From a virus: DNA of 64,000 nucleotides. The DNA is taken from positions 172,115-236,114 of IMG/VR virus record IMGVR_UViG_3300045988_142085; one strand, 5' to 3'. The notes beneath the pieces are model-generated. The model was not told where the DNA came from and ran no database searches. It saw only the letters and a program-made list of their open reading frames with translations. A program made the position numbers and the translations under genes. Shown here one piece after another: positions 13,180 through 45,367 of the stretch (position 1 is its first letter; every line of letters begins with the position of its first letter).

Positions 13180-13545
13180 TTAATACACTGAGCCTCCATT
13201 ATCTTGACCATTTTCATCTGGGAAGATATCGCTCTTTAGTTCGCTTTCTTGGTATATTTCAGAACCGTAATCTGCAATCCAGCGACCAGTAACAAGAGGA
13301 CGATCCCCGTATGCTTCAATTATAACATAATCTCCGCCTTTTGGGAACCAATCATCAGGTGAATTTGTTTGTACTGGCATAGCAGGCTCAGTTATTGTTT
13401 CGCCATTTTGTGAAGTATACGTTACTGTACAAGTGCAAGTTTTAGGGTCAGATCCTAAGACTGACCCTTTCAACTTTGCAAACCCGTCATTACGGATCTG
13501 TTGTCCAGCATATGTATCTTTAAATTTATTCTGTATTACTGACAT
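13180..13545 (-). CDS. Small baseplate or distal-tail protein (121 aa).
   Basis: Its start overlaps the stop of the 3123-aa gene by 1 nt. Position immediately after the tape-measure-like protein. Confidence 0.5.
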   Translation of the reverse strand: MSVIQNKFKDTYAGQQIRNDGFAKLKGSVLGSDPKTCTCTVTYTSQNGETITEPAMPVQTNSPDDWFPKGGDYVIIEAYGDRPLVTGRWIADYGSEIYQESELKSDIFPDENGQDNGGSVY

Positions 13546-16500
13546 TATGCACCGAGCTTAGGGATATTAACATTAACTTGATATACCTTACCATCGTCAT
13601 TATCGTATACTTGATAAGTTAACTCATCTTTTTCTTTTAATGTATCCATAATAACTTTAAGATTATCTTTAGATTCACCATGAGCAATTAATGTAAAACC
13701 AAAACCGGATCCAGGGAATATTTTTTTGGTACCGAACAAATAACAACTTGTTAACGTTATATAATCATTCGATACTTTATTGATATATGTATTTTGGTCG
13801 GTCGTAGTCTTATAAGATAACATTTGTTCTGCTTGGAAAATAATCTTACGAAGAGTATTTAAAGCAAATGGATGTAACAATGGAGCATCGACGATTTCAT
13901 TGCCGTCGCCGTCTTTACCTTTAATGCCGATAACCTTAACAGGTTTACCGCCTTGGTTTACAGAGAATTCGACTGTATTCTTAGACTCTTCATTATTTAA
14001 CGCTTTTTCATGGCGTACAACGAAGAATTTAAATTGTTTAAAGATATCGAATTCAGGACCAGGAACAGGAACTAAAGGATCGAGAATAGATGTATTATCT
14101 TTCTGAACATCTTCGATATTATGCATGAATTGTTCAGCTCTCATCTTAATCTCTTGTTTATCCTTATCGTTCTCTTCGTTATTACGCATTAACAATTGTT
14201 CGACAGAACGAATGCTGCCACGTTGTAATAAGCCATCGACATAGTTTTGATTTACGAGGTACTCATAATCGCCACCCATATTGTTAGCATACATGTTGCC
14301 GTCAGCATTTAATTGATAGCGCTGAAGAGCGTCGGCAGGACCGCCACCCATCGAAGCATTTAATATAAAGCTTAATGAACCAGCGATAGGATGATATCCT
14401 TCTTGATCTTGGAAACGATGGTTAAATACAGAGTCCATAAGATCTAATACTTGACCACGTTTCCCCCAGTTAGGGCTCATAAAGATTGTACCACTATTAC
14501 CTGCCCATGCTGGTATAAATGGCATACCGCGTTTAAGTAAAGGAGTAACACTTAATGTTTTGTAATTCTGAATAAAATCAGAAATCATGTCGCCCCATCT
14601 ACCTAAAGTATAGGCGGCAGCGACCATTAATACGTTACCACCGATTTTGCTGCCAAAATTTAACGCAGAAGATAAATATCGACCGATCGTAGAGCCAGCA
14701 ATTTTATTAAACAAAGCACCAGCTTTGCTCTTCATCAAGATATCTTTAGACGTAGCATCGATTATCTTTTTACTTATTTCAGGTTTAGCTTTTAATGCGG
14801 CAAGAGTTTCTTGACCTTTTTTAGTATTATTTATACTTTGAACATCTTTAATTAGACTTTGAGTTTCTTTACTATAAGCTTTTAATTTATCTATTCGTTT
14901 TTTATATTCTTTATTAAATGCTTCTTCAGCCTGTTGCTTATATAAACTTTCTAAGTTAGCTTTTCCACCACGGTCAAATTTATCCAAATCTTCGACGTTA
15001 GCAAGTTCTTCAATTTTTTTCTTTACAAAGTTATCTTTATTGACTTTAAAAACATCTGCTTCATTACTTAACTTTGTAAATTCTGGCATTCTAAGATTAA
15101 AAACTTTTTTAGAAATTTCTAAATTAGCTTTTTCGAAATTAGAGCTAGCTTCTGACCAAGCATTTAATACTTTAGAGATTCCTTCTCTTCCTTGAAGCTC
15201 ATATTTACTTAGCGCTAGCGAAGATTTAATAGGATCATATTTTGCTAAACGAGTTTCGACAGCTAAAAGTTTAGCTTCTAGTTCTGCAATTTTTGCTTCG
15301 TCTTTCGCTTCTTTCGCAGCATCCAATGCAGTCTTAATACCTGCTTCTCTTGTTTTTATTTTTTTATAAAAACTTTCTAATGCATTTTGGCGTTTCTTTA
15401 TTCTATTTAAATCATTTGAAACTTTTTCTGCATATTCTGCCGCAGCCCAGCCTTTTGCTCGAGCAAATAAGCCCCAACCATCATCGATAATGGCACGAAC
15501 AATATAAGCTCGTTGTAAATTATAAACACCGAGAGCATATATTGCGATACGCATTAATGTAGACGTAATAGCCATATTAACAGCTTGAGTCGTCTTATCA
15601 TTAAGCACATCGACAATCGCATCTGGAGTAATTGTCGTAACAAAACCTGTCGTAGCCGATAGTGTATGAACGACTTCTCGAACTCTCGCTTGACCTGTCA
15701 TGCTATTAGGCTCATCGAAAATAGAAATTCGGTCATGAGGTTTTACAGTAGGATCACCATAAACTACAAGATTGCCAGAATAAATTTGTTCGACAGATTT
15801 CTTTAATCGAGATAACGTCATTAATCGAGCAGTTTGTGCATGATTATGTTCAGGACCACCATAGTTATCTGGAGCAAAATTAGATATTGCCCAAGAAGCA
15901 ACGTTCTTTAAGCCTAGCTCTATACCTGTGCCAATAGCTCCACCAATGAGAGAACCAGCACCGGCTCCGACTGAACCACCTCTGGATCCAATTGCACCAC
16001 CGACAACCGAAGTAAATGCACCTGTAACTGTCGCATAGCTATCTAAAGAGCCGATTTCACTATCGATTCCGAATGTATTTTCAGAAGAAGTATGAACTTG
16101 AGTTCTACCATGTAACCATGTATCGACTACCATAGAACGTTGATACTCAGGATAAATATCACGATCGAAATAAATATCGGGAGTCGATTTTTTAACTTCT
16201 TCAAACTGATACATACCTTTAGCTACTGTAGCTACTTTATTAGAATTAGTTTGAATTTGGTTAGATAAAATATCGTGGTCTGACCAATACATATGGAATT
16301 GAGAATAAGGTTTTCGTTTTTCAAGAACATTTAATTGCTTGTTGTTCTTAATATATTTATAAGCATAATACCAATTAGGTAAGCCCATAAATACAGTACT
16401 TCTAAATCCGAAGTAATCAGTTGCGCCAATATAAGATGGATTTGCACTTGCTGCAAATTGCAACATATCCCACACTGTTCGGCCTTGCGTTTTAATACTA

Positions 16501-19500
16501 ATAAATTGATGACCTTGTTCTGGGGGATCGATACCGATAACACTTCCTAGTGAACGATACCAATGTTGTTGTCCTTGTTCTGAAGCACCATTTTCAAACT
16601 GTAGACTATCACTATTAAATAAATTAGTAATATCGGTATTTTTTCTAAAGTTATAATAATGAGCAGAAGAGTCATTAGTTACTTCATAAATATTTTGTAC
16701 TGGTTCACCATTAACGAATATATCACGATAATATGGATCGCCATAATGATAAATACCGAATGGATTATTAGAGAATACTCTCGATAGAATATTCCAATTC
16801 TTCTCACGGAATAATTGACTTGCGTAGTTTTGATCTTGACATGTTAAGAATGAACTTACTAATACACGAGGACTTACGCCACCGAAAGATAAACCATAAG
16901 GAGATTCACCTAAGTATTTTACACCACGGTTTTTAATCTTATCGCCGAAATTATCTTCACGAATAGGGTTAGATAATTCTATGCCATCGCCTTGACCGAC
17001 GATACTTACTACGTCGCCACCTTGGATCTCAGTAACAGTACCGTTAAACATAACAGGTAACTTAGCTGCATCAGCAGAATAACCCATGCGAATATGCATA
17101 CGAGCACCGGCTACTAATTTAATAGAATTTCTCTCAGGTATTAACGCTTGTTTTTCACTTAAATTACGAACATAAGTACGAGGATTAAAAATACTATCGT
17201 ATAGATTTTCAAGTCCGGCAACACCATATTGTAATTGTGTCGTAAAATTGTCGCCTTGTCCGTCGTCTTCATATTCAGCTAATATATTTTGATATAAATT
17301 ATTTAACTGAATAATAGCTGTATCGGCCGCAATATTTTTAGATTTAACGACTTGAATAGAACTTACTGCATTCGTACTATAGAAGCTATCATGCATCTTC
17401 CAGAATCCCGATGAAGCACCTTCATCGATAAACATAATCTGGAATGTCGGGAATCCTCGAAGCATCCTACCACGAACATCGGTTTGAACCATGTTAAGAT
17501 ATGAATCTCGAATGCGTCTTGCCAATGCTTTAGGAGTCATTGCATTTGCTTCTAATTCAAGTTGCTGCATAAATTCACGTTGAATTTGAGCGATAGGATT
17601 ATCGGTTGCAATATCAATACCGAGCTCTTCGATTTTTTCTACGAGACCGGAAAGAACTAAACCATATAATAGTTTTCGCAAGCTAACTTCGTCGTTTGTT
17701 AACGGAGCTGTCGTCGTAATATTCGGTGTAATTACTTTATGAGTTAACGCATTTAATGCATTATAATCACGAGTAACGATTTTTTTAATCAAAGAAGAAT
17801 CTTTACACATCAACGATAAAGCCGTTGCTACGAATAATTTACCTTTAACAAATTTATCTTGATTATCTTTAACGAAGTTTTTAAGAGTTTTAACGTTCTT
17901 TTCTTGAACGTCGTTAGCAAGTTTCATATCCTTCATGAACTCATATGCAGAAGCTTCGCTTACAGCATTTTGGAACATGATATCCGTCATATAGTTAGGA
18001 TAGATATTTTTCTTAATTAAAACACATAACCAGTATAAAACATTTCGTAAGAAAGCATGTTTTGCATAATTCATATCATGCATACAATATTTCATATATT
18101 GAATTGTTTCATCGTGGTCGGATGTTTGATAATAAGGATCCAAGAAGTAATATCGATCAGAAGCTTCGAAAGTGAAGCCTTTATCTAAAAACTTTTTACG
18201 ACGTTTATTATAATCGATCGGTAAGAATTGAAGCATAGGATTTTCTTCGAATTCTTTTTGAGTAAAGCAAGGAATACCGTAAGGGCCTAATTCAGTACAA
18301 GAACCATAACTATAAAAATCAGATGTGTCGTCTAAATGACGAACATAAGTTAAACCATTAATTGTATATCGTGTCGGCTTAAAGTTTTTTACGTTAAATT
18401 CTAAATCACTTTTTTTATCTTTAGAATCATCCTTATCTTTATTATAGTTAGGATCATTAAAGATACTATTTGATTTTCCGTTAAGTTTTACAGATTGCCC
18501 CCATAAGCCATATTGACCGCCATTTTCTTGAGCACCATTAGCTAAAGCTTGACCCATATACATAATAATGCTTTTTGCTTTTTCAGGTTCAAGATCAGTA
18601 GAGAACCCAGAAGCAAGTGCAGACCAAGCAAATTTATTTAACCAATCATTAATGTCGGCATTCCATTTGGAAGTTAAAGTAGTATCGACAGATTTTGTTT
18701 CGACAATAATATTTTTAAAATATTGAATTAAAGCTTCTTCAGAACCTTCATCTTCAATAGAAGTTTCAGATAAGAACTTAAGAGCTTTATCAGCTTCCCA
18801 TTGGAATGTATTAATGCTATCAACGATTACAGATTTAAGAGCGTTTTCGCCGCCCTCTTTTTTAACCTCGTTGACTTTTTTCTCAGCGCCTTCTTTTACG
18901 TCATCACCAACGACATCAAATTCTGCATTTTTTTGAATATCGTTTTTAACGACAGGTGCAGCTTCTTCTACTTTTTCTTTGGCCTTATCTGCTTCCTTTT
19001 GGCCATCTTCTGTGTTTAAGTTATGATATAACCATGCATAATAAGGTTCTAAGAAAGTAACGCCGATAGATTTACCGACCTTCCATTGACCGGTCGCAAT
19101 ACCAGATTTGAAGAGTTTCATGCGTTGTTCGTTCTCTTCTTTTTTCATCTGATTTAATTTTTCTTGCGTTAACTGCCAATCTTTAGCCGTCATTTCAGAT
19201 ATGCCACCATTTTGTGCAATCATACCATGACGCATAGAATATTGAGCAGCCTCACTAAGATCGGAAAGTATTTTTAATTCACCAGATGGATTACCGTCTT
19301 CATCTGGTTTGGCAAACATTTGTAACATCTTACTATCTTGCAAAATACAGTCTCTTAATAATTCCGAGAATAAATGTTCGTGATAGAAGAAATAAAAATC
19401 AGGATCGACAAATACTTGATCTCGAGGATTTTTATAACGAATGAACTCGAAGCCTAACTCGCCAAGCTCTTTAATCGTTGGCAACTCTAAATCTGGATAT

Positions 19501-22500
19501 AATTCAGCTTTAGATAAATTTTGATCGATTTCGAAGTAGCCTAATGCGGCTTGCGCAGCACGTTGAGCCGTAGCTTCTTTAGATGCAAAATTAGATTGTT
19601 CGAATTGTTTATAGATAGCAAATCGATTACGAATCGTTCTATCAGTTTGGCGCAATGTTACATTAATTTGAAATAACCCAGGATAATTTACGACAGTCGA
19701 AATCGATACTTGTTCGACGATTACTTCGAATATACCTAATAAGCGAGTGAATTCAGAATCAATTCTGAATGGATAACTCGGTAATGCATTCGGATATTTC
19801 TTTTTAAAATAAGAAATAATCTTCGGGATCTTATCGAAGCGATCGACAGTTTCTTTATCATAAGTCATTACAGAAAATGTTAACGTAGCATCTTGTCCGC
19901 CCATAAACTGAGGAGCCTGACCATGATATGTATTCAATGTCATGTTGGCATATGTATTAGAGAAGTTTGCTGTTAAACCTTGTACTAATACATCTTCTAA
20001 ATACGTTACATATTGAATAGAGCCGATACGTTCAAATTCAGAATCTTCATAATTTTCATATGTCTCTTGATTGCCAGACATTTGAACAGAACCATCAGCA
20101 TTTTGTACAGCAGCAAATTGAGATGCACAATATTCTAAGAATTTAGAATCGCCATCATAAGGAGAATATTCTAATGTGCATTGACCATTATTTTGCTTTA
20201 ACACAATTCTAAAGTTAAATGCGTTATCGGCAAACACCATATCATAATAACTAGTTTCTAAGAACATTCCAGACTGATCGGTATTCTGAATATTATCAGA
20301 CATGTTCTGATTGCCACCACCAGTTAAGGTGGAAACAAACTGTTGTCTTAATAATAAAGATTCATCTCGACTATTATAATCGACACTCGGAATGATTTTA
20401 ATTTTTAAATAATCATTATCTGGGTCTTCATCGAAACTGTACTGAGGTTTAGCTTGTCCGCCGCCAGCAATTGATAGAGCATAATCCTTAGCAGCTTTAG
20501 CTACGTCGATATGTTTTTCTAAGATAGAATAATCGGACGGAATATTTAATTTTTGTAAATAATCGACAATTTCACGACCAGCTGTTGACATTACAGAAGC
20601 TTTATCGCTATAATTAAATTTATATTTTTTAAGAATATTATTAATTTGATCGCTATGAATCGTTTTATAATATTGATTTGCGATCGCAAACAATTCTTTA
20701 TCTTTTTCAGATGGACGATAATAGTTAGGAGCTTTATTATTACTATGAGTAAAAGTCTGTCTAACTTTCTCCATCTTAACAAGCTTACCTTCGTCAGGCA
20801 TATAAATATTAATTCTAGGATTTAATGTGTCGACCGGCATATAAGCAGATCGATTTGCGAACAATGTTTTCTTCATAAAATCTTTAGAAGAAATATTCAT
20901 CTTTCGATCGTGAAGGTCTTGTCCTAATTGCAATGGTCGTTGAATATACCAACGTAATAAATCATAGTTGATTGTCTTTGCAAAGAAGTTGCGATAAATA
21001 TCGACAACGCCATCTTGTAAGTCACGCTGTTTAGGAACTTGAGGCATAAATACTTGATAATCAAATTCTTTAAGCAACAGCGTTACTTTTAATAATTTAG
21101 GATAGTTCGGAACTGTCGCTACCGACATCGATTCAAAACAAATAGCATCGATATCGAGAACTTCATTAATATATTTATTTTCGATTGGCATATATGGAGC
21201 AAAATGGAATTCAGATAGCAACGCCCGGAATCCATTCATATGATATACGACTTTTTTCTTTTTATCACTAAGATTTGTATACCACTCTACAGGTTGTCCG
21301 TTAATACCACGGTCTTCGTTAAAGTATAATTCTAATTGTAAAAATCGTTCAGGTTTTGCATTTTCAATATTAGCAGAACCTTTCGCACGAAGTAACGGAA
21401 CAGAATTTGTATAAGCTTGTGTTACCGTATTGATAGAAATAGGTGGAACAAATAACGTTACATCTCCGATTGTACAAGTCCAATCGGAGATAGAATTTAA
21501 TCCTTTAGTAATGTTATTCCAACCAAACGCTTTATTCTGAATATCGTGACGATTATCGTATTGTGATGTAGCGTTCCATACTGCATCAGTCCAAGCTTTC
21601 GTATCGTATTGATATGCCCAAGGTTTAAGATGAGGATTCGTAAAATCAGAATACTTTAAAATAGAAGTATTACGATGGCGAGCAATGATATATTTATTTA
21701 AATTAATCCATTGTCCATCTTTATCTTTTACGAAAATAACAGCTAAGTTACGACGATAATGTTCTAAACCATATGCGTTAATGCCTGTTTCTTGGAATAC
21801 GGTAGGATCTTGTCCAGTAAAGAATTTATTAAATGTATTAAAATAGTTAGCTAATAATCCATTACCAGGAAAGCTAATCATATTCTTAGGGTATGCCGTA
21901 GTTTGATCCTGTTTAGAAGAGCCATTGATATCGATAACGGCACGAACTTCTTGTGCGTTCTTTACCATATTTACGACATCATTAGCCGCAGCATATGCTA
22001 CTTCTAATGTACCGTAATTAGTTCCGTCAGCCATTAAACCAAATACAGGTTTACGTCCATTTAATAATGTAGAAGATCCGCCAAAACGTTTTTCGGTTAA
22101 ATAATCATTTACTTGGATCCATTTATTGTCGAACTCGCCGATTTGAGCAATCGTAACAGTATCGCTATCTTTATAACGTTCCCATTTAGAACCGTTCTTA
22201 TTGCTACTAGAATCATAAGCTTTCGTTAAAAAAGCTTGATAATTTTGAACGGCTTCACCGTATGTAACTTGTTTAACGTCAGTTGCATATACGATAGACC
22301 AGTGATGAACTTCTGGTGCATCGTAGAATAAGAAACGGAAGCCCATATCATAATCAAGACTTCTATTTTCGTCTTTTACTTTGTTCGCATCCAGAACATC
22401 TTCTGTCGCTTTTTTATTGCCGGCTAACCATGCTCGCATGTTTTGCTGACCGACACACAGATATTCTAACAGTTCTGGATCTTTTACTTCTGCTTTTCTT

Positions 22501-22916
22501 AAATCGGCATATAAAGTATCACCATCGACAAAACCAGCATGTAAATCTTCATCTGTAATTCTAAAAGCAGATGGAGGAAGGCTGACCATAGCCAGCCCTC
22601 TCAATCTATCAATACCAGTGTTTTCTAATGGAGGATTTTCTTTATAGAACAAAGCCTGTTCTTTTGAATCGCCCATCTTTTTAGCGAGCTCTTCATAAAT
22701 TCTCATGTCGACTGCGCCTTCTTCAAAGTCGGCTAATTCCGGAAGGCTCATCTGAGTATCTCGAACCATTTGGTCAAGCTCTTCTTTTGATCCTTCAGTC
22801 GGATTATTAGGAATATCTTCCTTTTTTGTCTCGACTTGATCGGAAGCCTTCTTGCCGACTTTTTGACCTAAGTGTTGAGTCGCATAGTTAACACCTGGCT
22901 TTTTATCTTCCGCCAT
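13545..22916 (-). CDS. Giant virion protein (3123 aa). The C-terminal third has tape-measure-protein character: coiled coils plus Gly/Ala-rich hydrophobic segments.
   Basis: A 9.4-kb ORF. It contains segments such as GGAIGSRGGSVGAGAGSLIGGAIGTGIELG and VLMVAAAYTLGRWG, flanked by long K/E/A-rich coiled-coil stretches. It lies between the other two giant genes and the baseplate genes. Confidence 0.55.
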   Translation of the reverse strand: MAEDKKPGVNYATQHLGQKVGKKASDQVETKKEDIPNNPTEGSKEELDQMVRDTQMSLPELADFEEGAVDMRIYEELAKKMGDSKEQALFYKENPPLENTGIDRLRGLAMVSLPPSAFRITDEDLHAGFVDGDTLYADLRKAEVKDPELLEYLCVGQQNMRAWLAGNKKATEDVLDANKVKDENRSLDYDMGFRFLFYDAPEVHHWSIVYATDVKQVTYGEAVQNYQAFLTKAYDSSSNKNGSKWERYKDSDTVTIAQIGEFDNKWIQVNDYLTEKRFGGSSTLLNGRKPVFGLMADGTNYGTLEVAYAAANDVVNMVKNAQEVRAVIDINGSSKQDQTTAYPKNMISFPGNGLLANYFNTFNKFFTGQDPTVFQETGINAYGLEHYRRNLAVIFVKDKDGQWINLNKYIIARHRNTSILKYSDFTNPHLKPWAYQYDTKAWTDAVWNATSQYDNRHDIQNKAFGWNNITKGLNSISDWTCTIGDVTLFVPPISINTVTQAYTNSVPLLRAKGSANIENAKPERFLQLELYFNEDRGINGQPVEWYTNLSDKKKKVVYHMNGFRALLSEFHFAPYMPIENKYINEVLDIDAICFESMSVATVPNYPKLLKVTLLLKEFDYQVFMPQVPKQRDLQDGVVDIYRNFFAKTINYDLLRWYIQRPLQLGQDLHDRKMNISSKDFMKKTLFANRSAYMPVDTLNPRINIYMPDEGKLVKMEKVRQTFTHSNNKAPNYYRPSEKDKELFAIANQYYKTIHSDQINNILKKYKFNYSDKASVMSTAGREIVDYLQKLNIPSDYSILEKHIDVAKAAKDYALSIAGGGQAKPQYSFDEDPDNDYLKIKIIPSVDYNSRDESLLLRQQFVSTLTGGGNQNMSDNIQNTDQSGMFLETSYYDMVFADNAFNFRIVLKQNNGQCTLEYSPYDGDSKFLEYCASQFAAVQNADGSVQMSGNQETYENYEDSEFERIGSIQYVTYLEDVLVQGLTANFSNTYANMTLNTYHGQAPQFMGGQDATLTFSVMTYDKETVDRFDKIPKIISYFKKKYPNALPSYPFRIDSEFTRLLGIFEVIVEQVSISTVVNYPGLFQINVTLRQTDRTIRNRFAIYKQFEQSNFASKEATAQRAAQAALGYFEIDQNLSKAELYPDLELPTIKELGELGFEFIRYKNPRDQVFVDPDFYFFYHEHLFSELLRDCILQDSKMLQMFAKPDEDGNPSGELKILSDLSEAAQYSMRHGMIAQNGGISEMTAKDWQLTQEKLNQMKKEENEQRMKLFKSGIATGQWKVGKSIGVTFLEPYYAWLYHNLNTEDGQKEADKAKEKVEEAAPVVKNDIQKNAEFDVVGDDVKEGAEKKVNEVKKEGGENALKSVIVDSINTFQWEADKALKFLSETSIEDEGSEEALIQYFKNIIVETKSVDTTLTSKWNADINDWLNKFAWSALASGFSTDLEPEKAKSIIMYMGQALANGAQENGGQYGLWGQSVKLNGKSNSIFNDPNYNKDKDDSKDKKSDLEFNVKNFKPTRYTINGLTYVRHLDDTSDFYSYGSCTELGPYGIPCFTQKEFEENPMLQFLPIDYNKRRKKFLDKGFTFEASDRYYFLDPYYQTSDHDETIQYMKYCMHDMNYAKHAFLRNVLYWLCVLIKKNIYPNYMTDIMFQNAVSEASAYEFMKDMKLANDVQEKNVKTLKNFVKDNQDKFVKGKLFVATALSLMCKDSSLIKKIVTRDYNALNALTHKVITPNITTTAPLTNDEVSLRKLLYGLVLSGLVEKIEELGIDIATDNPIAQIQREFMQQLELEANAMTPKALARRIRDSYLNMVQTDVRGRMLRGFPTFQIMFIDEGASSGFWKMHDSFYSTNAVSSIQVVKSKNIAADTAIIQLNNLYQNILAEYEDDGQGDNFTTQLQYGVAGLENLYDSIFNPRTYVRNLSEKQALIPERNSIKLVAGARMHIRMGYSADAAKLPVMFNGTVTEIQGGDVVSIVGQGDGIELSNPIREDNFGDKIKNRGVKYLGESPYGLSFGGVSPRVLVSSFLTCQDQNYASQLFREKNWNILSRVFSNNPFGIYHYGDPYYRDIFVNGEPVQNIYEVTNDSSAHYYNFRKNTDITNLFNSDSLQFENGASEQGQQHWYRSLGSVIGIDPPEQGHQFISIKTQGRTVWDMLQFAASANPSYIGATDYFGFRSTVFMGLPNWYYAYKYIKNNKQLNVLEKRKPYSQFHMYWSDHDILSNQIQTNSNKVATVAKGMYQFEEVKKSTPDIYFDRDIYPEYQRSMVVDTWLHGRTQVHTSSENTFGIDSEIGSLDSYATVTGAFTSVVGGAIGSRGGSVGAGAGSLIGGAIGTGIELGLKNVASWAISNFAPDNYGGPEHNHAQTARLMTLSRLKKSVEQIYSGNLVVYGDPTVKPHDRISIFDEPNSMTGQARVREVVHTLSATTGFVTTITPDAIVDVLNDKTTQAVNMAITSTLMRIAIYALGVYNLQRAYIVRAIIDDGWGLFARAKGWAAAEYAEKVSNDLNRIKKRQNALESFYKKIKTREAGIKTALDAAKEAKDEAKIAELEAKLLAVETRLAKYDPIKSSLALSKYELQGREGISKVLNAWSEASSNFEKANLEISKKVFNLRMPEFTKLSNEADVFKVNKDNFVKKKIEELANVEDLDKFDRGGKANLESLYKQQAEEAFNKEYKKRIDKLKAYSKETQSLIKDVQSINNTKKGQETLAALKAKPEISKKIIDATSKDILMKSKAGALFNKIAGSTIGRYLSSALNFGSKIGGNVLMVAAAYTLGRWGDMISDFIQNYKTLSVTPLLKRGMPFIPAWAGNSGTIFMSPNWGKRGQVLDLMDSVFNHRFQDQEGYHPIAGSLSFILNASMGGGPADALQRYQLNADGNMYANNMGGDYEYLVNQNYVDGLLQRGSIRSVEQLLMRNNEENDKDKQEIKMRAEQFMHNIEDVQKDNTSILDPLVPVPGPEFDIFKQFKFFVVRHEKALNNEESKNTVEFSVNQGGKPVKVIGIKGKDGDGNEIVDAPLLHPFALNTLRKIIFQAEQMLSYKTTTDQNTYINKVSNDYITLTSCYLFGTKKIFPGSGFGFTLIAHGESKDNLKVIMDTLKEKDELTYQVYDNDDGKVYQVNVNIPKLGA

Positions 22917-22930
22917 AGAATCTCCTTTAT

Positions 22931-33700: not shown

Positions 33701-36700
33701 TAAACCAAATGCATAACATATTTGTTTTGTTAATACAATTTTTCTAGGAATTCTTCTTATTTTTCTATTATGCTTTATGTAAGCTTGAACACTTTCGTAA
33801 ACTCTATCATTCCAGTTCATTTTTTCTAAGAGTTTTTTTCTTTCTCCTCGATTAAATTTTGGAACGCCATATTTTTCAAAATATTCATATATTTCAACAA
33901 ATTGTCTATTTTTTGTATTAATTTTATATAAATATTTTTCTGTTGAAATATATTCTGGTAATAATAATCCTAAATCTAATATTATTTCTTGATTTTTAGA
34001 TTTTGGAATAGGATAAGCGACATAGTTACCAATTTTAATGTCTTTTACTTTTTTCCAAGATAATCTATTTTTCAATAAATTAATATCATATAATTTATAT
34101 TTTTTTAAATGAATATTATGTTTATCTAATTTATAATCATAAATTAAATTATCTTGGAACATTTTTTTCCATAATTGACAAACATCATTTATAGAAATAT
34201 TAACAAGATCAGCTAAATCTTTTTTAGATGTTATTCCATTCTTTAATGCATTTAATACAGTATTTGCTCTTTTGTAATATGATAAAGAATTTCCAGATAA
34301 TTCTTTTGTTACATTATTAGAAGATTCAGTAACTAATAATGGATGATTTTCAGAAAATTCATAATCAAATGCAAATAAACTATTAACTTTTAACGAATAA
34401 ACTTTTTCTTTTAATTCTATTTTACGACAGACAATTTTATTTACGACTGTATTTTGACCAGTATGATCAATAATTATTGATTGATTTTCTACTACTTCAT
34501 CAGCAGCTAAATAGTCAAGATTGCCTATTTCTACCATTGTATTTTTTGAAATACAGTATGCATCGCCCATATAGAATTTTTCTGGAAGCCAAGCATGTTG
34601 ATCTGCCATTGTATTCATCAACGGATTAACACGTCGTCTTCTCGAAAATTCCGGTAAGAAACGACGGCTAATTTCGGCTGTTTCACCGCCGAGACCACCT
34701 ATACCAGCATCCCAGAATTGACGAGTGAATGAATCGATATCGCCAGCATTAGCAATGAATTTAGATTCGTCACGGCCGAATGCTTGAGATCCGATATAAC
34801 CATAAATACCGGTTAATAATCTTGAAGTAGTTTGTAATTCATCTAAATAATCACGACCACCATTTGAATTCATTAAATTATTATATAGGTCGGCATTATT
34901 TAAAATTTCTTCCAACGATCCTTTAGGTCTACCACGTTTAACACGTTGTTGTATATACATACCATTAGGATTAGTATAAGGAGAACTACCAGAATAAATA
35001 GCATTATTCATAGCAGAAATAGTACTTCCTGTGCCATTAGTAACAGGCTGTAAACTTGCTACTTCAGGATTTACTGTTCCGTCAGGATTAATATACTTAA
35101 CGTAATCGGCTGCCGATGCGTACATCGGTGCTTGTGGTGCATATTGTTGATCGCCACTTTGCACATATTCATTATCAGTCGGATGATCGAATGCCGTAAA
35201 ATCATATACGCCAAGACGTCCATTTTGGAATATTAGATAACGAGTATCTTGAGACTGCTCTTGTATTTGCTGGTTCATATGGTACATGACTGCTTTAACG
35301 TCACGACCGAACCACATTCTATCCTCATGGTATTTTTTCTTAGGCTTAATTATTTCACCTAATGTCGGATTAAGAATTAAACCTTGAAGAGTATTAGATT
35401 CAAACAAAGGACCTGATTCTAAATAAGGTCTATCTTCTGAATGCATCTCTTCTAACCAATAAGGATTAAGAGCATATATTAATGGAGATAAAGGGTTAGA
35501 TAATGTCGGTATTGGACTATGCATCCATTTATTAAAGTAACCGCCATAAATACCTTCAGTCTTATAATCAGACTTAGCTAACTTTAAACTATTATCTTCC
35601 CAATATGAAATACTAGAACCACGGAATTCATTCGTAGAACCCCATACCCAATAACGACCAGCACGAATTGGATCCTTACCGTTTTGATAATAATCTAATC
35701 GTTCCTCATAAGATTGATAAGGGCGATAATCGCCACTGATATACTGGGCCATTGGGTTAGCCATTTTAGCTAACTTAAATACATCGGTTAACCCTGTAGC
35801 ATCAGTAAATTTTCTAAAGCCTAAATCGATATTCGCTAAACCAGTTTGGAAATTTTCATTTAAATTAAATGTGTCGTCTGCCCAGTCAAATTGTGTATAT
35901 AAAAAACTAGCAGGCAATACACGTTTAAATAAAAGTTTGTCGATTATTTCTAAGCTGCTTCTTGAGGCATTTTCATGTAGTCCAAGACCATGACCAAATG
36001 TAAGAACTCGAGCAACTGCTCTTGTTGCAACGTTATTTACGACACCGGTAAAAGCACCTGGATCAAGCATATTAAGGCCGCCACTTAATCGGCTAACCAT
36101 CTTATATAAAGTCGACCCTGCTACAGATAAATCATTTGCTGTGCTATTATTAGAAAAATCTAAATGGCCACCAGTAACTTTACCTAACCATGTTGTTTGA
36201 CTTAATTTAGAATTCGCAAACAATCCTTTAGCCGAATCAGAAATTCCTTGCATTAATCCATTAAGATCGCCACTATTCCAAGAAGTAATTATCTTCTTAA
36301 CATCGAGCGATTTTCTTGCTAAAACTGGAGCAGCAGCATTTCCCTTTTTACCGAAATCATAATGGATATCTTTGCCATTACCTAAATAATGCCCGAGTAT
36401 TCTATCGGCTTCAGGACTATCGTCTAATGTATCTTGTATTTTCTTAAATACGGCAGAACCAATATCTTGCTTATCTCGATTAAAGTTATGTCGATCTTTA
36501 ATAACGTTAATACCAGATTCTTTTTTATACTTTTCTAAAGTATACATATCTTTTAGTTTTTGTTTTTCACCTGGAGATATGTTTAAAGAATCTATTTTAG
36601 CATAAGCTTCTGCTTGTGTTTTGCCTAAAGAATCGACAGCATTTTTAACGACGGCTTCATTAACTGTTTCTTCGACAGATTTAATTTTATATAAAGCTTC

Positions 36701-38440
36701 ACTACCGATACCGATACCGTCATCGCGTAAACGAGCATTAATTTTTTTGCCGTCGCTAGCAGCTTTAACGACACTTAATAAATCTAAGTTATCGACCTGA
36801 TCAACGTCGATATCCCGCAAGATTCTTCTTTTAGCACTTTCACTTTTTGCATGATATACATCACGTATTTTAGAAAGTGTATCTTTTTTAATGCCTTCTT
36901 TTGATGCGGCTAAATCGAGAACGATTTTCTCAGTATTTTTTTCTAAGTCGATATCGATACTTTGTACGGCACGAGCATGAGAATAGGCACGTCTGCCTAA
37001 TGCTGCTAATTCTGATTCGCTTAGCTGGTCTATATTAGTATTTCTTAATGCGTATAAATTATTGCCGTCTACATCAGTTAGTCTTTTAGCGCCTTCACTT
37101 CTGCCAAGCTGAGCCCAATTAGTTTTCTCTTGTTGAACACCATATTGACTCATTATACGACCATGATGAACTATATCGTCATTAGTAGAATGCCAATTGT
37201 ATCCGCTAATATCCATTTGTTCCATCTTACCGGTCGTAAGATCTTGGCGATATAATTTGTCTCGATTACGAACTAATAATGTTCCTTCCTTTTGGAAGTT
37301 AGCCATACCGAGTTTAAACTGAGCGTTAGAATAAACATCGACGCCTAACTGATTTCGAGGCGATAAATCATCGAGACCAAATAACTTACCAGCTAATGTA
37401 TCGCCGACAATTCCTTTTGCTTCAGATTTTATTTTATCTAAATTAGGAGTATTTAATACTTCGCCATCGACATACTTAGTGCTATCATTATATTTAGCAT
37501 TTTCAAATAAATCTGCTAAGAAAGCTGTTCTACTATCACTGCGTATTTTATCGAGAGCATTATCGACATCGATGATATCTCGTTTACCGTTACGAGATAC
37601 GATCGGAACATCGAGAGCACCATTATCGATTGCTGCATCAGCTTGCTTTTGTTTTACAAAATCGGCTAATGCAAAATCATGAATTTCTCCAGTCTTTTTA
37701 GCTTGATGCTTTTCTAGTAGTTCTCCAATATCTCTGATTTGATTCTCGATAAAATTCTCGGTAATCTTTTCGCCGCGGCCACCAACACTTTGCCAATCTT
37801 CAAAACTTTGTTTTCTTGTTAAGTTTCGAATAGTTCGTAATGCTACATTTGTATCATCAAATTCTGCATACTCTGACTCGCCATCCATAACGACGTCTCT
37901 TAATGTATTTTTAAGACGTTCAGAGAACCCGACAGTGCCGTCATATCGTTGAGATGGAACGATATTATTAATAGCGTCGACCATGTTGTCGATCGTTGCT
38001 TGATTGACGCCGGCATCTTTAAAATCGGTTGCTATCGAATCGATTACTTGAGCATGATATAATCCTTGTAAATTCTTTTCTGCATCTGCTTGTAAATTTA
38101 ATGTACGATTAAGAGTGTCACGAAGAATATCGGTTTGTTTGTCGGCCGTTACTGCAGATGAAGGTTTAGGAAAATTTCCTCTTAATGCTTGATTAGCATA
38201 TCCTTCTAACTCAGATAATGTAATAGCATTAGCGCCATCATCCGTTATTTTTGAGAGTCTACGCTCTACTTGTCCTATAATAGGATCGAGTTTAGATAAA
38301 ACTCTCGCCCCTCTTTTTGTTCTAGAAAAAGCAAAAGCGGCCCCGACGAGTCCGCCGGTAGCCGCTACTGTATCAACAAAAGAGTCGGCAGGACTATCAG
38401 AAGGAGCTTCTATTCCTTTAAATAAATAATCGTCAGCCAT
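30701..38440 (-). CDS. Giant virion protein (2579 aa precursor, ~2051-aa extein) interrupted by an in-frame intein. C-terminal Ala/Gly-rich hydrophobic segment.
   Basis: A 7.7-kb ORF directly downstream of two chaperone-like genes. The extein junction reads ...KFYMGDAY / TSLPNAEARLPG.... The C-terminal region contains AAAFAGTGLAIALAKNNP. Confidence 0.55.
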   Translation of the reverse strand: MADDYLFKGIEAPSDSPADSFVDTVAATGGLVGAAFAFSRTKRGARVLSKLDPIIGQVERRLSKITDDGANAITLSELEGYANQALRGNFPKPSSAVTADKQTDILRDTLNRTLNLQADAEKNLQGLYHAQVIDSIATDFKDAGVNQATIDNMVDAINNIVPSQRYDGTVGFSERLKNTLRDVVMDGESEYAEFDDTNVALRTIRNLTRKQSFEDWQSVGGRGEKITENFIENQIRDIGELLEKHQAKKTGEIHDFALADFVKQKQADAAIDNGALDVPIVSRNGKRDIIDVDNALDKIRSDSRTAFLADLFENAKYNDSTKYVDGEVLNTPNLDKIKSEAKGIVGDTLAGKLFGLDDLSPRNQLGVDVYSNAQFKLGMANFQKEGTLLVRNRDKLYRQDLTTGKMEQMDISGYNWHSTNDDIVHHGRIMSQYGVQQEKTNWAQLGRSEGAKRLTDVDGNNLYALRNTNIDQLSESELAALGRRAYSHARAVQSIDIDLEKNTEKIVLDLAASKEGIKKDTLSKIRDVYHAKSESAKRRILRDIDVDQVDNLDLLSVVKAASDGKKINARLRDDGIGIGSEALYKIKSVEETVNEAVVKNAVDSLGKTQAEAYAKIDSLNISPGEKQKLKDMYTLEKYKKESGINVIKDRHNFNRDKQDIGSAVFKKIQDTLDDSPEADRILGHYLGNGKDIHYDFGKKGNAAAPVLARKSLDVKKIITSWNSGDLNGLMQGISDSAKGLFANSKLSQTTWLGKVTGGHLDFSNNSTANDLSVAGSTLYKMVSRLSGGLNMLDPGAFTGVVNNVATRAVARVLTFGHGLGLHENASRSSLEIIDKLLFKRVLPASFLYTQFDWADDTFNLNENFQTGLANIDLGFRKFTDATGLTDVFKLAKMANPMAQYISGDYRPYQSYEERLDYYQNGKDPIRAGRYWVWGSTNEFRGSSISYWEDNSLKLAKSDYKTEGIYGGYFNKWMHSPIPTLSNPLSPLIYALNPYWLEEMHSEDRPYLESGPLFESNTLQGLILNPTLGEIIKPKKKYHEDRMWFGRDVKAVMYHMNQQIQEQSQDTRYLIFQNGRLGVYDFTAFDHPTDNEYVQSGDQQYAPQAPMYASAADYVKYINPDGTVNPEVASLQPVTNGTGSTISAMNNAIYSGSSPYTNPNGMYIQQRVKRGRPKGSLEEILNNADLYNNLMNSNGGRDYLDELQTTSRLLTGIYGYIGSQAFGRDESKFIANAGDIDSFTRQFWDAGIGGLGGETAEISRRFLPEFSRRRRVNPLMNTMADQHAWLPEKFYMGDAYCISKNTMVEIGNLDYLAADEVVENQSIIIDHTGQNTVVNKIVCRKIELKEKVYSLKVNSLFAFDYEFSENHPLLVTESSNNVTKELSGNSLSYYKRANTVLNALKNGITSKKDLADLVNISINDVCQLWKKMFQDNLIYDYKLDKHNIHLKKYKLYDINLLKNRLSWKKVKDIKIGNYVAYPIPKSKNQEIILDLGLLLPEYISTEKYLYKINTKNRQFVEIYEYFEKYGVPKFNRGERKKLLEKMNWNDRVYESVQAYIKHNRKIRRIPRKIVLTKQICYAFGLYLAEGWNNGCSIGMAHNINERDYAYNAFLGFKQIDSYINFSFKRSGVTNGAYSRFGSSIIASLLDVLFNKGAHDKKIPEFFWDAKEECVLGLLEGYICGDGSNFVMKSGYGKETEKISITSCNKKLLYQVRKLLLRFNIVGSINIHNKTSKKIRITKYLVTAGISYSLNIRGKKASILSELLFGKSLLPINNRARESSHHYINNGYLYLRIEDIKEINTIKEVYGYQVNQNNSFCVVGFATHNTSLPNAEARLPGKGYEAINALHPDQFASDGYGAIDRYKILADIAPNSPEYKYWKQIVKMMNSDEAKKVLQDTEEMVKHQGKKHDFFNYKFLGKTTVSQEGHIEEVLSNGKFKIAGDDRLYQIAGVKFKENGFMSKQQLLQVIQPGQRVTMRIDDEERTDNPDAPQAPIRAALFLNGENISDTLREVGLAEYDMDDSSAAGAYANYNTFGRIFGSAAELVTHAQIPILHSQFMRINDPLEEYRSDQLYGSGFASWEDIIDTMLVPTFEQSKTSFVKDLVADSAYRYYKGLNSRALDNASKSRLAVAKFASTYLDGPALAGEITGRFTFVGANAVERKEKLSRAFRFAGNAFAMATSTDDPMYATYAWGRMGYDIGSHLNLFDKFVSDESIIGRFAEGIFGNVDNKGIEKLVDFAKRTRASRMLQAAAFAGTGLAIALAKNNPITEALGLDHVYTPDNVEKRWDTEEYFDRLRYIKYMGLYEAAKEKAKSEEGVDVDKLYQHQAALRAEMDGDVSITDMMASVLTSGTPSNDPLAQWINKKFGRLSEDMTTLAAGEWTEQAIMYHQVAESTVYALNKDSEYSDIIRALPSTEKEYFVEFAKVTNEKQRRAILRNVSPSLAKALKLVWYQEETETESNESYFTTHNLPGPLWQGWEASSNLEDIKAKVIYNEGMQYADFGIYSSTYEDPEVINAPNIENIRNGDDPITVRAKINTVLSGIGLTEKQIQVNPTQQDGIIDIVTNVTSVIGYKIDKALSFL
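32972..34555 (-). mobile_element. Intein (528 aa) with an embedded LAGLIDADG homing endonuclease domain, inserted in the 2579-aa giant protein.
   Basis: Starts with Cys (CISKNTMVEIG; Cys codon at 34553-34555) and ends with ...VVGFATHN followed by extein Thr (codons at 32972-32977). Contains LAGLIDADG-type motifs GLYLAEGWNNG and LLEGYICGDGSNF. The region is markedly AT-richer than the flanking extein DNA. Confidence 0.7.
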
Positions 38441-38462: not shown

Positions 38463-39266
38463 TTAATTATTATTTCTAAGTTCAGCTAACTCTGCAAGTG
38501 TCATATCATGAGGATTTTTACCGCTTAATGCTACTTCACGAATAGAGTTTTCATCGCCTTGATTTACAAATGCTTCTGGGAACATAGCTTTTAGTTCGTC
38601 TTCAGACATTTGTTGTTTACGTCTTTTTGGACGTTTAACTGTTGGTTTTGGTTTTTTAATTTCTTCCGGAGGCTTTTCTCGTTGTTCTCTTAACTTATCG
38701 AAGTATTGTTTTTCTTCGTTAAACAAACGAGGATCGTCTTGTTTAAACGATACGTTACTGCCAGCATCGAGAAGTTTTTCCATATCGAGACCGCCACGAC
38801 CATGGATGTTTTTTAAGATCCATTCGCTTCTTGCTAAGAAATCCATTGTTCTAACCATATCCCAATTATCGATATCTTCGATATCGTATTCAGGGAATGC
38901 TTCATGGATTACACAAGAGATTTGTTTATCGACATTTTGCATATTATCGACAGCATTTAAATAAAGAATTTCTCGGCCTCGTTTGCTCATGAAACTAGCA
39001 TCGAGAATCTTCTGTGCTAAATCGGCAATAAGACCAGCTGGCTGTGCTCCGATATCGAAATTTTCAGGATATAAGATACAGTTATAACAAACAATATCTT
39101 CACGCTCCACATCCATAAGTTGTTCATTTTCGAATAGCTCATAGTATTGTGAACGAGTTAACGGTCGATAAATTACGATACCGTCCGGGAATCCTGTATA
39201 AGTAAAAACAGTTTTATATTTTTCTTTTAGTTGTGTAAATATTTCATCGAAACGTAATTCTTCCAT
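38463..39266 (-). CDS. Acidic protein (267 aa), candidate tail assembly chaperone.
   Basis: Sits immediately upstream (in transcription order) of the first giant tail-lumen gene. Acidic, with a basic K/R-rich tail segment. Confidence 0.35.
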   Translation of the reverse strand: MEELRFDEIFTQLKEKYKTVFTYTGFPDGIVIYRPLTRSQYYELFENEQLMDVEREDIVCYNCILYPENFDIGAQPAGLIADLAQKILDASFMSKRGREILYLNAVDNMQNVDKQISCVIHEAFPEYDIEDIDNWDMVRTMDFLARSEWILKNIHGRGGLDMEKLLDAGSNVSFKQDDPRLFNEEKQYFDKLREQREKPPEEIKKPKPTVKRPKRRKQQMSEDELKAMFPEAFVNQGDENSIREVALSGKNPHDMTLAELAELRNNN

Positions 39267-39849: not shown

Positions 39850-40488
39850 TTAGCTATTAATTACCTTACGATCTCGAGCTAAAAATTGATATTGCTCTAA
39901 CACTGGACGACCAGAAGAATCGAGTACTGTTTGTACATTCATTATATGACAGTCTAATAAAATAACGTGTAACGGTTGACCCATTACATCGTCATCTTGT
40001 CCATATACAATATCGATTTCAAACCCTTGTCTCCATATAGCATCATGCTCAGGATTAGATTGTACGGTTTGAGATAATCGATGTGGTTGAACAATTTCTT
40101 TATATTCGACTTCGGTTGTCTTATCCTCGGCAACTAAAGTTGCTTTCTGATATTTCTTAATCATGTTATCGATGTAAAGTGGTTCGGTAAAATTAATAGT
40201 AAACGTTCCTTGTACTAACCGATTACCGATAGCTAACTCGTCATAGATATAAGAATTATAACCGAATAATGGCATATCGTGTTGAGATAATCCATAATTA
40301 ATATTCTGGATATCGGTAACTAATTTATCACCGAACCATACATTTGCATCGATCTGAGAATAATATCTTTTATATGTCGGAGTATTTTTAGTATACCCAG
40401 ACGAAGATCGAGTGATTTCTTGTTCAACGTTTTTATTTGTATAGGACAATAGACTGCTTAAATGATTATCGAAGCGCTTTCGTCTCAT
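39850..40488 (-). CDS. Hypothetical tail protein (212 aa).
   Basis: Compact ORF in the tail module. Confidence 0.5.
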   Translation of the reverse strand: MRRKRFDNHLSSLLSYTNKNVEQEITRSSSGYTKNTPTYKRYYSQIDANVWFGDKLVTDIQNINYGLSQHDMPLFGYNSYIYDELAIGNRLVQGTFTINFTEPLYIDNMIKKYQKATLVAEDKTTEVEYKEIVQPHRLSQTVQSNPEHDAIWRQGFEIDIVYGQDDDVMGQPLHVILLDCHIMNVQTVLDSSGRPVLEQYQFLARDRKVINS

Positions 40489-45150: not shown

Positions 45151-45367
45151 CAAAAGTGGTATTCTTACCTCTCGAAATGGAGCGAGGCTCTGCTGAACCA
45201 AATGTGTAAACCGGAGCTTTCTCACGGTTAATAGAAACTGTAATACCTTGAATTTCAGCAACTACTTCGGAACCGAATGTAGCTACAATATCACAGCCAG
45301 AGAAAGTAGTATAACTACGAGTGTATTCAGACGCTGTAGTTACACCAGAGTTATTAGAGTAAGCCAT
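45150..45367 (-). CDS. Major tail tube protein, exon 1. The 3' boundary is approximate: the ORF stop at 45131-45133 lies in the intron.
   Basis: MAYSNNSGVTTASEYTRSYTTFSGCDIVATFG... aligns with the N-terminus of the 42214..43458 paralogue. The sequence then diverges into an intron-encoded tail (TFASPLQ stop). Confidence 0.6.

Follow-up and report, generated by a model that had tools for sequence, protein, structure and literature searches.

Three Giant Tail-Core Proteins of a Jumbo Myovirus: A Hyperplastic Baseplate Hub, an Intein-Bearing Virion Protein, and a Tape-Measure-Slot Protein with Polymerase-Type Sequence Features

The virus represented by IMG/VR record IMGVR_UViG_3300045988_142085 is a jumbo myovirus of ~236 kb, and the part of it analyzed here (the window; 64,000 nucleotides, positions 172,115 to 236,114 of the record) contains three consecutive giant genes, designated gA, gB, and gC in the order in which they follow the tail chaperone genes. 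Their products form the tail-core trio that is conserved in the 0305phi8-36-like lineage, a group of jumbo myoviruses with long tails. gC is a hyperplastic baseplate central hub, orthologous to gp147 of phage 0305phi8-36, and not a tape measure; gA is the precursor of a gp145-type virion protein and is interrupted by an intein. We consider it probable, with moderate confidence, that gC serves as the hub of a tail core in which gB is a lumen protein of the tape-measure slot with polymerase-type and exonuclease-like features and gA is a second lumen protein, and that delivery resembles that of the Thermus siphophage P23-45. A more ambitious proposal is possible and is advanced tentatively: gB would be a virion RNA polymerase, complete and active, that belongs to the multisubunit β/β′ lineage and is joined to a DEDDh exonuclease and a tape-measure-type hub anchor; it would be injected through the contractile tail ahead of the DNA for pre-early transcription.

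The three genes are as follows (positions in the window; lengths in amino acids, aa).
30701..38440, minus strand: gA, 2579 aa; tblastn/blastp matches to gp145, Edson 093, and MTATph1 026
22931..30688, minus strand: gB, 2585 aa; positional equivalent of 0305phi8-36 gp146, by synteny in all relative-carrying loci examined
13545..22916, minus strand: gC, 3123 aa; tblastn/blastp matches to gp147, MTATph1 032, and Edson 091

A Conserved Trio at the Tape-Measure Locus

The initial annotation of the window described three consecutive giant open reading frames (ORFs) of 2579, 2585, and 3123 aa, separated by 12–22 nt and spanning 24.9 kb, and the ORF listing bears this out: 22 nt separate the upstream chaperone gene from gA, 12 nt separate gA from gB, and 14 nt separate gB from gC, while the gC ORF overlaps the following gene by 1 nt. 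Open frames of 7.7–9.4 kb are not a product of chance, because stop codons are frequent at the GC content of this region (33–38%), and each of the three proteins has a homolog or positional equivalent in other phages. The trio also lies where that annotation placed it, at the tape-measure locus of a contractile-tailed phage, with sheath and tube genes upstream and baseplate genes downstream.

The arrangement is not new; it has been known since 2007 from the Bacillus jumbo phage 0305phi8-36. In tblastn searches of phage genomes, gA matched gp145 and gC matched gp147 of that phage (blastp E-values of 4e-40 and 1e-58, respectively), and tblastn/blastp counterparts of gA and gC were also found in phages Edson, WH1, and KLEB27-3 and in Moorella phage MTATph1. 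The annotated records share one gene order: sheath, tube, tube paralog, two chaperonins, the three giants, a gpV-like gene, and baseplate genes. The giants of these phages have the following lengths.
0305phi8-36: first protein 1930 aa, middle 2537 aa, third 1903 aa
Edson and WH1: first protein 2025 aa, middle 2515 aa, third 2319–2320 aa
MTATph1: first protein 1949 aa, middle interrupted by an insertion sequence (IS), third 2225 aa
Five metagenomic relatives were reached through proteins of the gp145 family, and the trio is present in each of those examined, with middle proteins of 1631–3173 aa. The annotation of the 0305phi8-36 record names gp146 a "hypothetical tape measure protein" and gp147 a "baseplate hub protein/endolysin," and it states that mass spectrometry found gp145 and gp146 in virions; the WH1 record annotates all three giants (gp094–096) as virion structural proteins. 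gp146 has been described as very rapidly diverging and gp147 as a hyperplastic homolog of T4 gp27 and P2 gpD (Hardies et al., 2007; PMC2147016).

A megablast search with the whole 24.9 kb found no match among phages, single-sequence searches with gA, gB, and gC found none among solved structures, and Pfam and PHROGs applied to the three whole proteins returned only the intein of gA and a match of gC to phrog_20474. The window and 0305phi8-36 share the gene order from sheath through baseplate, the homology of gA to gp145 and of gC to gp147, a C-terminal module and a DEDDh-like ExoI motif in gB and gp146, and a "hyperplastic" hub with swappable add-on domains. They differ in that identity is about 27–31% and confined to blocks; gA contains an intein; the exonuclease-like domain is N-terminal in gB and mid-protein in gp146; gB has an RNA-polymerase-type DxDGD barrel that gp146 lacks; and gC is 1200 aa longer than gp147 and is without its NlpC/P60, M23, and SLT lytic domains.

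The middle giant gene of MTATph1 (21669–29025) is broken by a transposase gene and annotated as ORFs 026–031; this phage was isolated viable. A metagenomic relative, L007 (GCA_043531625.1 contig, 16642–26642), encodes a 1631-aa middle protein without a detectable barrel, an extra 147-aa gene, and a 3730-aa hub, a layout which hints at transfer of domains from one of these two large proteins to the other.

The Middle Protein and Its Enzyme-Type Features

Three parts of gB can be delimited.
29699..30481, minus strand: N-terminal DEDDh-exonuclease-like domain, aa ~70–330
24254..24436, minus strand: RNA polymerase β′-type double-psi barrel block, aa ~2085–2145
22934..23287, minus strand: C-terminal module, consisting of a Gly/Ala hydrophobic segment, a Pro-rich linker, and a small α/β domain

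gA and gB jointly fill the tape-measure position, gA adjoining the chaperone genes and gB the hub gene. gB evolves fast: BLAST found no match in phage genomes, and a search of 1.84 billion representative proteins returned only seven matches, all from its own lineage, the closest of which (P0355) is 28% identical over its full length. BLAST and HMMER likewise found no match between gB and gp146; the C-terminal architecture is nevertheless shared, being common to 10 of the 10 middle proteins examined, gp146 included. Within gB, aa 2342–2380 resemble Tape_meas_lam_C weakly (E = 0.008; 16.6 bits, below the cut-off of 23). Pfam searches with 400-aa pieces of gB gave sub-threshold matches only, PHROGs gave no tape-measure match, a search for internal repeats found none, and the composition profile was not discriminating. 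The C-terminal module most likely docks in the hub; the rest of gB would lie in the tube lumen and help to set tail length, as suggested by its position, by the variability in length of the middle protein (1631–3173 aa), and by the published assignment of gp146.

The initial annotation had credited the middle protein with enzymatic domains, and two sets of sequence motifs agree with that description. In the N-terminal region, motifs occur in the order of the DEDDh (DnaQ-like) consensus (ExoI DxE, ExoII NxxxFD, ExoIII HxAxxD): FFDIETIP (D75/E77), GFNSQFFD (N215…D220), and AHDAGAD (H316…D321). They are kept in P0355, whose Pfam match to RNase_H_2 reaches 22.1 bits (cut-off 22), and equivalent motifs are present in Edson, WH1, one metagenomic relative, MTATph1 (Pfam RNase_T, 29.8 bits; cut-off 24), and, in mid-protein, gp146 (YLDIETTGL). 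The exonuclease domains of the different lineages could not be linked to one another by jackhmmer.

The second set of motifs lies ~450 aa from the C-terminus, where gB reads GRYPFDYPTSV…(29 aa)…LDYDGDQ, with R2093-x-P2095, S2101, and D2131-Y-D2133-G-D2135-Q as key residues. The pattern R-x-P-x5-S/T … D-x-D-G/S-D was found in seven divergent middle proteins (14–31% identical); when these are aligned, no columns are invariant except those of R, P, and the three Asp. The middle protein of Edson and WH1 has the barrel. A profile built from this 200-aa region of the middle proteins and searched against all PDB sequences gave 21 matches. In 20 of them the matched protein is the largest subunit of an RNA polymerase, and the alignment falls exactly on its NADFDGD active-site loop; they include gp55, the non-virion polymerase of phiKZ (E = 2.9e-8), Pol V of plants (1.9e-5), RPB1 of African swine fever virus and poxvirus (0.015), and AR9 β′ (0.03), as well as Pol I, Pol II, and archaeal Rpo1N. 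A control profile, made from the sequence next upstream, returned nothing but unrelated noise (E above 0.06). The same barrel profile found nothing in gA or gC, and no Pfam, PHROG, or PDB match pointed to T7/N4-type single-subunit palm motifs in any of the three giants. An assignment of the block to a lytic domain of the MltA/3D/RlpA type was rejected, since all but one of the PDB matches are RNA polymerases that align over RxP…S…DxDGD. Polymerase and exonuclease activities of gB are both predicted from its motifs. The literature searched contained no report of jumbo myoviruses with a barrel of RNA polymerase type in the gp146 slot.

The closest precedent is gp96 of P23-45, a 5002-aa tape measure with an N-terminal two-barrel RNA polymerase that was identified from its DFDGD signature alone; virions contain the polymerase as part of full-length gp96, and the enzyme, which is active in vitro, transcribes the pre-early genes (Chaban et al., 2024; PMC10770324). 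gp96 and gB are both giant proteins of the tape-measure slot with a DxDGD RNA polymerase signature hidden to standard searches, both have hydrophobic membrane segments, and tail delivery followed by pre-early transcription is the mechanism in P23-45 and the one proposed here. They differ in several respects: P23-45 has a non-contractile tail and the present phage is a myovirus; the gp96 polymerase is N-terminal and experimentally active, whereas the gB barrel lies ~450 aa from the C-terminus and is a putative polymerase; gp96 is not among the PDB matches of the gB barrel, which is best matched by multisubunit-type β′ (phiKZ, Pol V, Rpb1); and gB adds a DEDDh-like domain while a second barrel was not found in it. 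Judged by these motifs, the combination of barrel and DEDDh-like domain in gB would be a variation on the tape-measure-fused virion polymerase.

Several observations weigh against the placement of gB in the lumen with polymerase-type and exonuclease-like features. Judged by composition, gB has no markedly greater helical content than gA, and gA, directly after the chaperones, is by gene order an equally canonical tape-measure candidate. An α-helix rises ~1.5 Å per residue. The 486-nm tail of 0305phi8-36 (PMC4113786), divided by the 2537 aa of gp146, corresponds to 1.9 Å per residue, so that gp146 alone is somewhat short, the more so as it also holds a globular domain; tail length does not cleanly tell which protein is the ruler. 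As for the enzymatic features, the Pfam RNase_H_2 match of gB itself is weak (E = 0.1), and neither Pfam nor PHROGs sees a polymerase in the protein. Motif, iterative, and profile searches did not detect a second (β-type) barrel, a bridge helix, or a trigger loop: for the second barrel, windowed jackhmmer searches, a two-sequence full-length profile compared with the PDB, and regular expressions for the β-subunit K/R-G-x-K-G motif were negative or gave noise, a profile of the 480 aa upstream of the barrel gave only noise, and a reduced-alphabet search for common patterns had no power (10,820 patterns vs. ~10,000 in shuffled sequences). Failure to find the second barrel is uninformative: outside the DxDxD region, the families of RNA polymerases are stated to have no sequence similarity that can be relied on (PMC10770324), and a second barrel in gB may therefore escape such searches. 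The position of the barrel, ~450 aa from the C-terminus where P23-45 has its polymerase N-terminally, also tells against the reading. The barrel is, moreover, absent or undetectable in the 1631-aa protein of L007, in the IS-interrupted gene of MTATph1, and in gp146, the one member with proteomic data; it is therefore not needed for the core function of the slot.

These points lend themselves to an alternative in which gB is an ordinary, though very large, tape measure; its exonuclease-like and DxDGD blocks would be relics, structural elements, or sites of a non-polymerase function such as metal binding in assembly, and the phage would use a separate or host polymerase. Such a protein would account for the missing second barrel and for the lack of any polymerase family called by Pfam, and also for gp146, which has no barrel block and belongs to a phage reported to encode a separate YonO-like RNA polymerase (ABS83659, distinct from gp145, ABS83703, and from gp146). 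It accounts poorly for the R, P, and three Asp that are strictly invariant across lineages 14–31% identical and unalignable elsewhere, an invariance that implies strong selection on the metal-binding loop, and for a spacing and flanking residues that match the β′/Rpb1 active site. We therefore regard an ordinary tape measure as rather unlikely and prefer gB as a lumen protein with a polymerase-type barrel.

The First Protein, a gp145-Type Virion Protein with an Intein

gA is the 2579-aa precursor of a gp145-type virion protein, which is reduced to 2051 aa by removal of the intein. The following features were located.
38324..38383, minus strand: N-terminal hydrophobic segment, aa 20–39 (Kyte-Doolittle scan)
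32972..34555, minus strand: class-1 intein with LAGLIDADG homing endonuclease, aa 1296–1823 (528 aa)
32354..32689, minus strand: domain with a staphylococcal nuclease (SNase)-like oligonucleotide/oligosaccharide-binding (OB) fold, ~aa 1918–2029 (bounds from a β-rich stretch of the model)
31661..31720, minus strand: Gly/Ala-rich hydrophobic segment, aa 2241–2260 (hydropathy scan)

The intein that had been reported in the first protein is real. Pfam detects LAGLIDADG_3 (E = 1.2e-8; 35.5 bits, cut-off 22.5) and, under its cut-off, Intein_splicing (25.6 bits); the splice boundaries read FYMGDAY|C1296ISKNT … VVGFATHN1823|T1824, with Cys1296 as first residue, H1822-N1823 at the end, and T1824 at position +1, and the insertion site is the conserved motif GDAY|T. 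A search with the spliced sequence retrieved many alleles of 2049–2052 aa (mostly exactly 2051) at 95–97% identity, together with a 2579-aa allele; the junction of the intein-free allele reads GDAY-T. Because intein-free alleles have exactly the predicted length, the intein boundaries are proven. The five residues past the insertion site are SLPNA in gA (window 32960–32975) and KVING in the intein-free allele P0001, while the flanks are ~97% identical; the difference may mark a tract co-converted during homing, or it may protect the target site.

The gp145 family has been repeatedly invaded by inteins, which occupy three or more distinct conserved positions (GDxY|T, G|TPFTGGK, and |TKLLQVRSPLE). 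Inteins of this kind are known from phage structural genes, among them the portal, minor capsid, and tape measure genes of actinobacteriophages (bioRxiv 10.1101/2025.01.02.630785). In what is quoted from that survey, the likeness to gA extends to a class-1 intein with a homing endonuclease in a conserved virion-protein motif and to the co-circulation of intein-free alleles; the gp145-type family is not among the exteins quoted from it, and the invasion of this one family at three or more conserved sites sets it apart from the cases quoted.

For the family as a whole, 114 members (mostly 1.7–2.3 kaa; thousand aa) were detected. In gA, a fast-evolving N-terminal half is followed by a compact, conserved C-terminal half. 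The N-terminal ~850 aa of gA have no detectable similarity even inside the gp145 family, and the C-terminal 1200 aa are modeled as a compact multidomain body (predicted template modeling score, pTM, 0.68). The hydrophobic segments have equivalents in gp145, where the N-terminal one is stronger (aa 27–56) and the segment corresponding to gA aa 2241–2260 takes the form of Gly-zipper segments. The SNase-like OB domain is the sole recognizable fold in gA, and some family members are annotated in their source as thermonucleases. gA as an active SNase was rejected on its catalytic residues, the OB fold being degenerate: the domain lacks the nuclease residues of SNase (Ca-binding and general-base positions D21, D40, T41, E43, R35, and R87), and inspection of the family alignment shows no conservation at the DxPE-equivalent positions. 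The single DxDxD of gA is not conserved either, and no catalytic signature was found in the protein. gA is probably another protein of the lumen, or one that is ejected, and would be loaded by the chaperones that load gB; the gp145 family is a conserved virion component that is probably essential.

In most phages the tape measure gene directly follows the chaperone genes. gA might accordingly be the true length-determining tape measure, with gB purely an ejected polymerase/exonuclease cargo that shares the lumen. The order chaperones-then-gA suits this arrangement, as do the N-terminal and C-proximal hydrophobic or Gly-zipper segments, the fast-evolving N-terminal half (~800 aa without similarity to relatives), and the status of gp145 as a virion protein. 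The predicted shape of the C-terminal 1200 aa (pTM 0.68), however, is compact and multidomain, not extended; family length is near constant (1.7–2.2 kaa without inteins), whereas middle proteins range in length over a factor of two; a tail of 486 nm is more than the 1930 aa of gp145 could span; and the conserved C-terminal module beside the hub gene belongs to the middle protein. We consider a ruler function of gA improbable and keep gB in the tape-measure slot, with gA as its neighbor in the lumen.

The Third Protein, a Hyperplastic Baseplate Hub

The domains of gC are as follows.
20877..21770, minus strand: conserved domain R1, aa 383–680 (jackhmmer cross-matches with R2)
19377..20084, minus strand: conserved domain R2, aa 945–1180 (paralogous to R1)
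15582..17567, minus strand: central hub domain of gp27/gp44/gpD/VgrG fold, aa 1784–2445 (AlphaFold and Foldseek)
13548..15581, minus strand: C-terminal extension, aa 2446–3123 (hydrophobic segments, long helices, and a terminal domain)

The match of gC to phrog_20474 is strong (E = 4.5e-149), a profile search gathered a hub family of 498 members, and the alignment with gp147 proceeds in three blocks (aa 483–667, 975–1178, and 1808–2441). An AlphaFold model of aa 1760–2560 (predicted local distance difference test score, pLDDT, 67; pTM 0.65), compared with the PDB by Foldseek, gave 40 matches at E ≤ 0.001, essentially all of them hub, spike, or tail-tip assemblies of phages, tailocins, extracellular contractile injection systems (eCIS), and type VI secretion systems. 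The best match is to the phi812 baseplate (8e-11); T4 gp27 (1.7e-5), AlgoCIS, the PVC spike, MuSo2, the pyocin R2 hub, and VgrG were also retrieved. Template modeling (TM) scores are 0.59–0.63 to Mu gp44 and 0.59–0.66 across hubs of ~320 aa. Independently of the model, a sequence profile gave a weak match of gC to the PVC spike 9qgm, and the hub fold is supported further by its agreement with the published gp27/gpD assignment of gp147 (PMC2147016).

gC thus shares with T4 gp27, Mu gp44, P2 gpD, the phi812 hub, VgrG, and eCIS spikes the fold of aa 1784–2445, and with known hubs a gene located directly upstream of the gpV-position spike gene and the baseplate genes. It differs from them in being roughly ten times larger, with two extra paralogous N-terminal domains, ~600 aa of unmatched sequence before the hub domain, and a ~680-aa hydrophobic/helical C-terminal extension. 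The R1-equivalent part of gp147 has a weak match to Dit_like, and gC (in R2) and Edson 091 have weak matches to DUF6046; R1 may be an adaptor domain of tube/Dit-like type. Gly-rich hydrophobic segments at aa 2314–2336 and 2444–2467 are followed by long helices, a further hydrophobic segment, and the terminal domain. The extension, which has no Pfam or PDB match, looks membrane-active, and to regard it as a Tal-like addition to the hub is a better reading than a tape measure.

Unlike its relatives, gC has no recognizable lytic or nuclease domain. Add-ons vary across the hub family (P0235–P0354) and include SNase, M23, NlpC/P60, amidase_2, glucosaminidase, 3D, LysM, and Endonuclea_NS_2 domains; nuclease-type domains recur in both the hub and the middle protein of these phages.

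The initial annotation held that only the last protein has tape-measure features. The Gly/Ala hydrophobic segments and long helices that it noted in the C-terminal third of gC are present in the hydropathy scan and the AlphaFold model, and it is because this Gly-rich hydrophobic, coiled-coil extension resembles a tape measure that the role of gC was miscalled; hydrophobic segments occur in gA and gB as well, and gC is a baseplate hub by fold and by orthology with gp147. The corresponding picture of all three proteins as lumen cargo, with gC as tape measure and polymerase delivery of the N4/crAss type, draws on those same segments and helices and is scarcely tenable in view of the central-hub fold of aa 1784–2445 (E down to 8e-11 against solved baseplate hubs), the orthology with gp147, the lack of a T7/N4-type polymerase signal in any giant, and the lack of any barrel-profile match in gA or gC.

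Proposed Mechanism of Delivery

Homologies, folds, motifs, and gene order are what the analysis shows; the mechanism that we propose goes further. In it, gA would first excise its 528-aa intein; the tail would then be built on the gC hub, and the chaperones would feed gA and gB into the tube as it grows. At infection the sheath would contract, the membrane would be engaged by hydrophobic segments in the lumen proteins and the hub extension, and gB would be driven out through the hub and enter the cell before the DNA; its polymerase module might then transcribe the first genes of the entering genome, a step drawn entirely from the analogy with P23-45 gp96. The lumen location and ejection of gB are likewise suggested by analogy, and its putative exonuclease might act in proofreading, RNA processing, or anti-defense. 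What persists of the multi-protein enzymatic lumen cargo envisaged at the outset is gB, for which the gp96 precedent makes it plausible; gC is a fixed part of the baseplate, and gA is without a catalytic signature.

The N4 enzyme is a T7-like single-subunit polymerase, and the crAss and N4 polymerases are carried in the head and are not known to be encoded in the tape-measure slot. Like the cargo proposed here, crAss-like phage gp66, the N4 virion RNA polymerases, and polyvalent injected proteins (Iyer et al., 2017, via PMC7824862) are large multidomain enzymes that are packaged and ejected with the DNA. They differ in type, there being no T7-like signal in the trio and the gB barrel resembling multisubunit β′. 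The suggestion of N4/crAss-type delivery thus remains plausible for gB in its general form, delivery of a virion polymerase, and fails in the specific one, no N4-type (T7-like) feature having been found.

If gB is an active polymerase, it would be a second, independent transcription enzyme in the tape-measure slot of a tail, and the first such case in a contractile tail. Delivery of polymerases from the tail lumen would then be recurrent, in jumbo myoviruses as well as in Thermus siphophages, with a bearing on how jumbo phages start transcription independently of the host, on the passage of large folded domains through the tail tube, and on the diversification of two-barrel polymerases. The lineage spans relatives in public metagenomes and isolated Bacillus phages. 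For annotation, the lesson is that the longest gene before the baseplate genes, which was called the tape measure, is here a mislabeled hub.

Gene Neighborhood

The genes around the trio are a myovirus structural module. Portal, protease, major capsid, sheath, and tube genes lie upstream, and a gpV-position gene followed by a Baseplate_J-like gene lies downstream; the exact gA sequence is present on a 236,270-bp metagenomic contig (ERZ27263288 k119_70580) and near-identical relatives of gA sit on contigs of 225–235 kb, sizes that indicate a jumbo phage. The located neighbors are listed below.
57160-59235: portal
53102-54325: major capsid protein
45423-48485: sheath, 1020 aa
39278..39835, minus strand: first acidic chaperone-position gene, 185 aa, isoelectric point (pI) 5.12 (assigned by position and acidity)
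38463..39266, minus strand: tail assembly chaperone, 267 aa, pI 4.85 (blastp homology to gp144/gp143)

The two genes preceding gA had been described as acidic and chaperone-like. Both are acidic, and a two-gene tail chaperone has been described for 0305phi8-36 (PMC2147016). Homology supports the 267-aa protein, which matches the tail chaperonin gp144 of that phage (blastp, E = 4e-14) and the C-terminal domain of gp143 (5.6e-10); the 185-aa protein has no significant similarity to gp143 and is assigned by position only.

The major tail tube gene is apparently split (window 43750–45367, minus strand). Its first exon is ORF 45134–45367, which begins MAYSNNSGVTTASEYTRSYTTFSGCDIVATFG, and its second lies inside ORF 43750–44070, which contains IPPFDITLSFANEYG; between them is a LAGLIDADG-like endonuclease ORF (44241–44903), and sub-threshold group I intron matches fall at 44890–45162 (31.9 bits, E = 7.8e-6) and 44246–44340. 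Two full-score group I introns (61902–62123 and 62471–62690, minus strand; 106.6 and 101.4 bits) lie among ORFs 60823–61407, 62087–62464, and 62656–63753, the last of which encodes a LAGLIDADG homing endonuclease with helix-turn-helix domains. Three paralogous tube-like proteins (39850–40488, 42214–43458, and 43750–44070, minus strand) match phrog_9206, the label of which, "major head protein," is misleading, as the 0305phi8-36 counterparts are the tube protein gp140 and its paralog gp141. Beyond the baseplate genes, a 1695-aa ORF without a Pfam or PHROG match (4757–9844, minus strand) presumably encodes a fiber or baseplate-peripheral protein.

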